Part shown: positions 20,649-21,266 of the stretch, one piece after another
Numbering within the stretch: position 1 is the first letter of the stretch
How the letters are laid out: the number at the start of each line of letters is the position of its first letter
IMG/VR virus record: IMGVR_UViG_2648501110_000004
DNA: 22,466 nucleotides
Source: a virus
Taxonomy: Duplodnaviria > Heunggongvirae > Uroviricota > Caudoviricetes
Direction: 5' to 3' (one strand)
Notes under the pieces: model-generated
What the model saw: only the letters and a program-made list of their open reading frames with translations
What the model was told of the DNA's origin: nothing
The model's database searches: none
Translations under genes and position numbers: made by a program

Positions 20649-21266
20649 TCAATTATCTTCCAGGCCGGATGCTATCAACGAAAGCCTCTCAAAAAACGCT
20701 GTAGCAGCCTTGTCCAAAGTTGAATAAGTACTGTATTCTCCGTGTTCGGGACCAACCACTACCCATGGTCGTCTTTTTGGGATTCGGGATTTCTCAGAAA
20801 TCACTGTTCCAGATATACCAATATCAATTGTTACACCTGTTATTATTTTCTCTTCATCTCTTTCCCTGAACTCAATTGCCATAAATGCCGTTTTTTTTCG
20901 TTTCCCGTTTTTAAAAAAATCAAATAAAGCAAAGCGATGCTCATTAAAATCAACACCCCATCGTCCTTCAGGATAAAGGGCATGAAAGTTGTCATTTACG
21001 CTCTGCATCGTCTCATAAGCTTTAACTTCTAAATCTCCATAATGCATAGATACCGCGCAGGAGTCACTGGGTAACTGTATTTTCCCAAGATTGAAAATCT
21101 TTACTGCTCCAGAACTATGGCATCTTGCCCGCAACTTATCCCCATTTATACTAATCGGAGAAATATTCCTTAATGTTCCGGGCTGGCTCCCTCCTAAGTA
21201 AACGACTGTTAAAGATTGCTTATTTTCAATTGCATCAACTAATACATGCTCTACATTTTTATCCAT
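20649..21266 (-). CDS. Uncharacterised cargo (moron) protein, about 205 aa
   Basis: ORF in visibly AT-rich DNA immediately downstream of Q. GGGAGG lies 7 nt upstream of the ATG at 21266 (MDKNVEHVLVDAIENK...). A terminator lies about 130 nt downstream. I recognise no catalytic motif. Confidence 0.7.
   Translation of the reverse strand: MDKNVEHVLVDAIENKQSLTVVYLGGSQPGTLRNISPISINGDKLRARCHSSGAVKIFNLGKIQLPSDSCAVSMHYGDLEVKAYETMQSVNDNFHALYPEGRWGVDFNEHRFALFDFFKNGKRKKTAFMAIEFRERDEEKIITGVTIDIGISGTVISEKSRIPKRRPWVVVGPEHGEYSTYSTLDKAATAFFERLSLIASGLEDN

Follow-up and report, generated by a model that had tools for sequence, protein, structure and literature searches.

What does a lambdoid phage gain from a small, AT-rich gene between its antiterminator gene Q and its lysis genes? 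The question is raised by the IMG/VR virus record IMGVR_UViG_2648501110_000004, a stretch of 22,466 nucleotides from a member of the Caudoviricetes, which at its full length is called the window below. On the minus strand follow one another a DUF968/HNH-like gene, Q, an open reading frame (ORF) for 205 aa, a hairpin with a run of six U, an ORF for 75 aa, an N6/N4 DNA methyltransferase, holin, lysozyme, and Rz/Rz1. The subject of this report is the 205-aa protein (WP_052895007.1). With high probability it is a non-catalytic WYL protein devoid of a helix-turn-helix (HTH) domain, whose pocket for single-stranded nucleic acid is predicted to be intact and whose C-terminal domain is found in no other architecture. 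From the genomic context, it may plausibly serve defence or modulate the host. The best overall explanation, which we put forward tentatively and at somewhat less than an even chance, is a non-enzymatic two-domain WYL protein which would be made in the lysogen, sense or bind single-stranded DNA (ssDNA), and protect its host cell.

The ORF starts with ATG at 21266 and its stop codon is 20649-20651. The homologues have the same Met start; an alternative reading of the same frame starts at 21293 and gives 214 aa. The NCBI annotation pipeline (PGAP) calls the identical 618-bp coding sequence in complete Escherichia coli genomes under the product names 'hypothetical protein' or 'WYL domain-containing protein'. 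A first-pass annotation, made from the letters of the window alone, had pointed to the ORF, to a ribosome-binding site (RBS) GGGAGG, and to AT-rich DNA. All three are present. The GC content of the gene is 39.3% (31.6% at third codon positions) compared with 53.0% for the window; neighbouring genes range from 48 to 54%, except Q with 42.6%. The AT-rich insert extends from the Q stop codon to the -35 element of a homologue of the late promoter pR'.

The WYL domain

The first-pass annotation had loosely likened the N-terminal 60 residues to a WYL sensor domain, and this guess was right. When the single 205-aa sequence is used, Pfam WYL (PF13280) scores 16.5 bits, below its gathering score of 21.8 (E=0.0088), the PADLOC WYL 'associated signalling' models match weakly (E ~0.005), and neither NCBIfam nor a sequence search of the PDB returns a match. 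A profile of 104 family sequences matches solved WYL domains, i.e., DriD (7u02, 7tzv, 8tp8) with E=1.3e-4 to 3e-4, and also BrxR and CapW; for a few family members PF13280 hits had been precomputed. The structure model is confident. Its N-terminal part is a five-stranded, strongly bent Sm/SH3-like barrel with a helix in front, which is the WYL fold, and the top fold matches are WYL proteins only.

The conservation within this domain is concentrated in Y23, G25, G26, S27, P29, G30, R33, P37, A47, C49, K56, F58, and K62, which are invariant or nearly so. By profile, the family stretch YhGGSqpGavReIaPi aligns with YEGGSTPGRTREVTPL of DriD. In DriD, Y168, S172, and R178 contact the phosphates of bound ssDNA and R204/W206 contact the bases (PMC9186387). 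Y23, S27, and R33 align with the three phosphate-contacting residues and are conserved to 100, 92, and 100%. K56 (100%) and F58 (95%) are spaced as R204/W206 are and, going by this spacing and not by an explicit alignment, are presumably their counterparts. CapW binds ssDNA in the same pocket as DriD (PMC11662680). Because the DriD contact residues are conserved and CapW uses the same pocket, a retained site for single-stranded nucleic acid is the best-supported functional prediction which the sequences allow.

The known relatives DriD, PafBC, CapW, and BrxR are wHTH-WYL-WCX regulators, i.e., they possess an N-terminal winged HTH (wHTH) and linker helices. The 205-aa protein has neither; it begins with the helix directly preceding the WYL barrel, and no HTH family was matched in Pfam or NCBIfam. 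Thus, it is not a classical operator-binding regulator. A further difference is that the canonical W-Y-L / RWHVR motif has become R-A-R-C in this family. The accessory WYL1 protein of Cas13d (PDB 6oaw) has an extra N-terminal ribbon-helix-helix and is tied to CRISPR; in the present family neither a ribbon-helix-helix nor a CRISPR association was seen.

The C-terminal domain

The linker between the two domains is unconserved and the model is of low confidence there, with a predicted local distance difference test score (pLDDT) below 50 at residues 70-77. The domain of about 120 aa which follows ends in a long helix, and Foldseek alignments to DriD extend over 126-143 columns. Its position after WYL is that of the WCX domain, but the order of secondary-structure elements differs: WCX of DriD is beta-alpha-beta-beta-alpha-beta-alpha (PMC9186387), whereas here a helix, seven strands, and a helix are predicted. 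A sequence match to WCX was not found. The conserved positions are W103, L114, F118-K119-N120-G121-K122, K125, R166-P167-W168, V170, A187, and F191; in character the conserved residues are basic or aromatic. A database search with a profile of the C-terminal domain returned nothing but WYL plus C-terminal-domain proteins (about 195 aa) and pieces of these, and no other architecture. Therefore, the domain appears to be private to this WYL architecture.

The D...EEK arrangement which the first-pass annotation had considered possibly, though not convincingly, nuclease-like does not survive an inspection of column conservation. There is no invariant Asp, Glu, or His in residues 84-205. At the position of D116 ('LFDFF'), 66% of the homologues have R or K. 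Moderate conservation within 'RERDEEK' is confined to E135 (62%) and an acidic residue at position 139 (70%), and next to this stretch residues 142-146 form an insert that is specific to a lineage and present in less than 12% of the sequences. Comparisons with Pfam, PADLOC, folds, and profiles did not yield a nuclease family or fold. Another candidate, a PsiB/frataxin-like domain, was dropped as well: hhalign showed no relation to the RecA inhibitor PsiB, and neither homology nor strong fold similarity was found.

Distribution and conservation of the family

The 205-aa protein matches phrog_8498 end to end (E=5e-126). An exhaustive profile search found 955 representative clusters (at 50% identity) with E<=1e-3, of which 608 reach E<=1e-10. 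Nearly all are 187-210 aa long with full-length matches, and the clusters at E<=1e-10, which comprise both domains in full, come from many phyla and cover a range of GC contents. Identical or almost identical copies (99-100% identity) are carried by about 45 IMG/VR prophage contigs, and the gene is present in 51 of 5426 complete E. coli genomes. Compared with an E. coli paralogue of 73% identity, the ratio of nonsynonymous to synonymous substitution rates (dN/dS) is 0.22, from which it follows that, by this sequence measure, the gene is under purifying selection. The full match to phrog_8498, the copies in prophages and E. coli genomes, and the dN/dS of 0.22 taken together establish that it is not a chance ORF. 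A few E. coli copies (P0003 and P0006) are apparently frameshifted or truncated, as the alignment loses register in mid-protein; most copies are intact.

Literature and accession searches for WYL combined with this C-terminal domain did not turn up a report, and the architecture is covered by no paper, curated family, or defence model. Makarova et al. 2014 (PMC4012209) catalogued WYL fusions, among them those with BRCT and with nucleases, without a function.

Position between Q and the late promoter

In the genome record of phage 933W, pR' (-35 TTTACG, -10 TATCAT) overlaps the Q stop codon and is followed by qut and a rho-independent terminator; tRNA genes and stx are located further downstream. 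We aligned the 933W pR'-qut-tR' cassette with the window, with the locus of the 73% paralogue (L060), and with phage PhiR40_1. The homologous cassette of the window is 20578-20495, downstream of the stop codon of the gene. Thus, according to this alignment the gene is located between Q and pR' and upstream of the Stx position. This revises two points of the first-pass annotation. The slot between Q and lysis where Shiga toxin resides is not the one occupied here, because stx is downstream of pR'/tR'. The hairpin with U6 does exist, yet it is not private to the gene: it is located about 130 nt past the stop codon, aligns with tR' of 933W, and pR' is positioned in between. The tR' homologue is shared to 100% with mEp460, Ayreon, and Stx2c phages.

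Common to this locus and to 933W-like Stx phages are the Q family (PF06530), a homologous pR'-qut-tR', and AT-rich foreign cargo near Q. The difference is in expression. Expression of stx depends on Q; transcription of the 205-aa gene is predicted to be Q-independent because, lying between Q and pR', the gene is outside the Q-dependent late transcript.

The pR' homologue consists of -35 TTGTGT (20578-20573), a 17-nt spacer TATAACAAAAATGCTAT, which is a candidate Q-binding element, and -10 TAGTGT (20555-20550). In phage 21 the Q-binding element is between -35 and -10 (PMC6606751). The 17-nt block TTGTGTTATAACAAAAA is identical in the paralogue locus and different in 933W and PhiR40_1. Correspondingly, Q of the paralogue locus is 86% identical with the stretch GISLNQVVIRLQKAEGF unchanged, and the Q proteins of 933W and PhiR40_1 differ in that region. 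A perfect 10-bp palindrome, TGTTATAACA (20566-20575), is situated in the -35/spacer region and within the block that the paralogue locus shares; it is a candidate part of the Q-binding element, possibly an operator for another protein. Two other readings of the promoter region were abandoned. An extended -10, TGTTATAAC, or the palindrome might have formed a promoter or operator distinct from pR' but is better read as the -35 and spacer of pR'. The idea that pR' comes directly after Q, which would place the gene within the leader between pR' and tR', derived from a TATAAT at 21308-21303 and was given up since the 933W alignment puts pR' at 20578-20550.

Q of the window is 56% identical to Q of 933W and has a mosaic breakpoint at window position 21552, i.e., at about codon 59. 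In its first 59 or so codons it resembles many other Q alleles, with 84-92% identity. The C-terminal half, which binds DNA, occurs only together with the gene: all 52 of the 52 genomes which have this allele also carry it. This linkage is explained by a single mosaic block, about 20568-21551, which comprises the C-terminal half of Q, the gene, and the pR' spacer. In other phages the same place is taken by different small genes, in PhiR40_1 by one for 148 aa on the opposite strand, in Ayreon by one for 141 aa. Therefore, the interval between Q and the late leader is a cargo site in its own right.

A hairpin over the start site

The RBS and AUG of the gene are enclosed in a 21-bp RNA hairpin, in which the upstream arm contains CCUCC and pairs with GGGAGG and AUG. 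The predicted folding energy is -26.9 kcal/mol with z = -5.3 to -7.5, and none of 200 shuffled sequences folds as well. The antisense strand folds less stably (-18.6 kcal/mol), as several pairs are G-U. The 73% paralogue has kept the hairpin with the same asymmetry (sense -18.1, antisense -11.1). That sense exceeds antisense in both cases favours a role at the RNA level. A terminator it is not, because a U-run is absent.

The 5' arm contains TATAAT, a candidate -10 element, which is TATTAT in most relatives and TACAGT in the paralogue. One IMG/VR relative has acquired an IS1 between Q and the gene (L035:4267-4990; InsA/InsB with Pfam E=1e-21 to 1e-78). The element interrupts precisely the hairpin loop and removes the 5' arm together with the candidate promoter.

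Such an arrangement has a precedent in the fold-back inhibition of IS10 and IS50, where a hairpin hides RBS and start of the transposase only in read-through transcripts and the element's own promoter is located in the 5' arm. The same logic may apply here, with the qualification that it is deduced from sequence and that the promoter is a candidate. Transcripts coming from pR through Q would fold the hairpin and hide RBS and AUG. RNA starting about 7 nt past TATAAT would lack the anti-Shine-Dalgarno arm and could be translated. That the gene is a moron of the Q/pR' interval with translation limited to its own transcripts is, in our judgement, an evenly balanced proposition.

Contexts of distant homologues

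A profile scan of genome contigs with a small family alignment identified only seven loci. The genomic neighbourhoods of several homologues are those of lysogeny modules. In L006 (58.6% GC) and in the related pair L076/L077 (38.5-38.9% GC) a short CI-type repressor (PF07022) precedes the gene by 9-31 nt on the same strand; gene and repressor are divergent from cro-like genes, and in the pair an integrase follows. The P2-like element of Enterobacter soli pENTAS02 contains, in this order, an HTH repressor, a membrane protein, a family member fused to BRCT, and an integrase. This fused member (L091:4725-5591) has an N-terminal PF00533 at 34.7 bits. In Pseudoalteromonas phage PY3 a 369-aa member is located between integrase and a LexA-like repressor, a Shewanella homologue adjoins an S24 cI, and a homologue in L069 is beside an integrase. 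Two further loci resemble defence islands, one with SMC/AAA_23 and Mrr-nSTAND3, the other with GmrSD_N and HEPN.

Prophage immunity regions often carry defence genes, and positions in repressor-integrase modules are typical of protective genes expressed in the lysogen (PMC12724215). Distant homologues share this genomic logic with lambda RexAB, BstA, and GiPD474, i.e., they reside with or beside maintenance repressor and integrase and are mobile, AT-rich, and patchily distributed. There is no relation in sequence or fold, however; GiPD474 (PMC12724215) was considered and is an unrelated protein. The E. coli copy is located elsewhere, between Q and pR', and the defence role of the family is at present a candidate one. 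An example of lysogen-expressed protective genes beside the repressor is rexAB of lambda.

Several members (P0127, P0143, P0144, P0090, P0177, and L075:4125-5543) have N- or C-terminal hydrophobic segments which, read by eye, apparently span a membrane, suggesting that membrane-anchored sensor versions exist. P0090 possesses double zinc ribbons in addition, and P0177 has retained only the WYL part. A second uncharacterised domain is fused C-terminally in P0068 and in the 374-position profile phrog_31886 and is a separate gene in L069 (4272-4961, BLASTP E=2e-8). We followed this as a lead of the Rosetta-stone type: P0068 is homologous in its C-terminal half (residues 196-356) to the separate gene upstream of the homologue in L069, and that gene in turn matches phrog_31886 in the C-terminal half of the profile. 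A homologue of this partner is absent from the window.

Considerations of function

How might these observations be connected? We envisage an AT-rich moron trapped between Q and the late promoter pR'. Its product would be expressed in the lysogen, from transcripts that end at the tR' hairpin. The protein would bind ssDNA, e.g., intermediates of phage replication or recombination, entering ssDNA, or by-products of DNA damage, and would act by binding or assembly without catalysis, guarding the lysogen from other phages or mobile DNA. Of these elements, the analysis shows the fold, the conserved residues, the position of the gene, and the folding energies of the hairpin, whereas the ligand, the promoter, the expression in the lysogen, and the defence role are deduced. 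Taken alone, such a protective or exclusion role via ssDNA recognition is possible and in our estimate rather doubtful. Several observations weigh against the proposal. Within E. coli the gene is rare (about 1% of complete genomes) and located outside the immunity region, and many homologues have uninformative chromosomal contexts. A recurrent partner or effector gene was not found among the neighbours; none recurs across the approximately 25 homologous loci scanned. The defence models of PADLOC-DB v2.0 (2023) gave no match beyond the weak WYL signals. A consensus promoter scan did not call a promoter of the gene itself, and its -35 is weak. Covariation in the hairpin is thin: of three single-base variants among near-identical copies one strengthens and two weaken a pair. 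Finally, instead of ssDNA the protein could bind RNA or a nucleotide.

Among the alternatives, a DNA-damage sensor in the lysis-lysogeny circuit has the best odds, although we hold it to be unlikely. Bound to ssDNA, the protein would in turn bind a repressor and inactivate or assist it and thus permit SOS-independent induction, or stabilize lysogeny, where a short CI is without the RecA-cleavable S24 domain. It is established that DriD, PafBC, and CapW sense DNA damage by responding to ssDNA, and one family member is fused to BRCT. L006, L076, L077, and pENTAS02 each have, upstream of the gene and on its strand, a short HTH repressor (about 127-140 aa; PF07022 or HTH_3). Repressor and gene are direct neighbours in the first three and are separated by one gene in pENTAS02; an integrase follows in L076, L077, and pENTAS02. 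However, the E. coli gene comes after Q, far from the immunity region, the repressors of Shewanella and PY3 are of the LexA-like S24 type and need no helper, some homologues occur outside phages, and a co-evolving partner was not found. Less probable still is a sponge for counter-defence or SOS damping, in which the HTH-less WYL protein sequesters ssDNA or heterodimerises with WYL regulators of the host, so that BrxR/CapW defences stay repressed or RecA activation is limited. The protein is indeed the sensor half of a wHTH-WYL-WCX regulator without the DNA-binding half, the gene is phage-borne, and such regulators derepress defence systems upon ssDNA binding (PMC11662680). Yet counter-defence genes usually are early lytic and the contexts of this family are lysogeny operons and defence islands, RNA that reads through during the lytic cycle should not be translated because of the hairpin, and the negative PsiB comparison mentioned above also speaks against it.

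The remaining two alternatives can be given very little credence. A decaying or functionless passenger ORF, kept only by being trapped between Q and pR', would account for the linkage to the Q allele by position alone; the apparently damaged copies P0003 and P0006 and the copy with IS1 just upstream would fit. Purifying selection, the full two-domain length of the 608 clusters at E<=1e-10, and the invariant pocket residues speak against it, as does the intactness of most copies in E. coli and IMG/VR, with 99-100% identity. The least probable is a nuclease or toxin effector in which WYL senses and the C-terminal half cuts via a D...EEK-type site: other WYL proteins are fused to nucleases (PMC4012209) and two acidic positions are moderately kept, but the column conservation and the lack of a nuclease fold match described above argue to the contrary. 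We return to the lysogen-made, non-enzymatic ssDNA sensor or binder. In its most general form, a widespread single-protein WYL sensor of ssDNA of about 195 aa in prophage lysogeny modules would either exclude superinfecting phages or ssDNA, or link DNA damage to the prophage switch without RecA/LexA; in E. coli the fold-back hairpin would allow it to be translated in the lysogen only. In such a stand-alone sensor the C-terminal domain might drive dimerisation or coating. So comprehensive a generalization is improbable as it stands, if slightly less so than the damage sensor just discussed.

Other features of the window

The features of the locus are compiled in Table 1. A partnership of the 205-aa gene with the neighbouring 75-aa gene and the methyltransferase finds no support, as these two are backbone genes which also occur in phages without the 205-aa gene, and in strain S88 the methyltransferase is absent beside it. 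The 75-aa ORF has a weak MarR-like winged-helix signal.

Table 1. Coordinates of the gene, its domains, and adjacent elements in the window.
Feature	Coordinates	Strand	Basis or remark
CDS, 205-aa two-domain protein WP_052895007.1	20649..21266	-	ORF list, PGAP, phrog_8498 match
N-terminal helix and WYL beta-barrel, residues 1-66	21069..21266	-	
Inter-domain linker, residues 67-83	21018..21068	-	variable columns, low model confidence
C-terminal family-specific domain, residues 84-205	20652..21017	-	one helix, seven strands, long C-terminal helix
Shine-Dalgarno GGGAGG	21272..21277	-	sequence; 5 nt before ATG
21-bp RNA hairpin, 7-nt loop	21262..21310	-	pairs RBS and AUG with upstream anti-Shine-Dalgarno arm
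Candidate -10 TATAAT in 5' arm of hairpin	21303..21308	-	inferred; sequence
AT-rich insert carrying the 205-aa gene, 763 bp, GC 37.5%	20579..21341	-	composition; boundaries by BLAST coverage
Q antiterminator, Q21/933W family	21342..21728	-	PF06530, E=5.6e-47
DUF968/HNH-like gene	21731-22318	-	
pR' homologue	20550..20578	-	alignment with annotated 933W pR', PhiR40_1, paralogue locus
Conserved initial transcribed region of pR', GTTAAGAGTGGTTACTTCGCCACAC	20525..20549	-	aligns with 933W leader and annotated qut
Intrinsic terminator AAACCCGCCACUGAGCGGGUUUUUU, 8-bp GC-rich stem and U6	20495..20519	-	933W tR' homologue
75-aa ORF, phrog_331	20169-20396	-	PGAP uses ATG at 20372, giving 67 aa

Some observations concern the surroundings. 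A perfect LexA-box core, CTGT-N8-ACAG at 19993-20008 (minus-strand context TACTGTAAAAATAAACAGTG), overlaps codons 4-9 of the methyltransferase and is the sole zero-mismatch match in the window; it is a possible SOS operator on the methyltransferase. A LexA box near the 205-aa gene was not found. Rfam returned sub-threshold matches only, one of them to the Salmonella small RNA STnc130 on the plus strand at 20391-20527 (30.1 bits, gathering score 55, E=0.05, full model length), a stretch antisense to the tR' region and to the start of the 75-aa ORF. The prophage small RNA svsR (PMC12803456) was considered and belongs to an unrelated locus. Further downstream, 17610-18077 and 17672-17857 are an embedded Rz/Rz1 pair, in which an ORF for 61 aa with a lipoprotein-like N-terminus is contained in the +1 frame of a 155-aa Rz-like ORF; it is part of an ordinary lambdoid lysis cassette.

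Implications

WYL domains so far are known chiefly as the ssDNA switch of transcription factors which control defence systems and responses to DNA damage. Here, a large family of about 950 clusters at 50% identity keeps the sensor pocket without a DNA-binding or enzymatic domain, i.e., it would represent a WYL sensor with a new, non-regulator output. The locus itself is an example of cargo between Q and pR' under an expression regime unlike that of Stx, in which a fold-back hairpin may permit translation only of RNA started within the element. If a phenotype exists, it would show that the output of WYL sensors extends beyond transcription factors, and it would add a compact single-gene module to the means of protection or of induction control which prophages encode.

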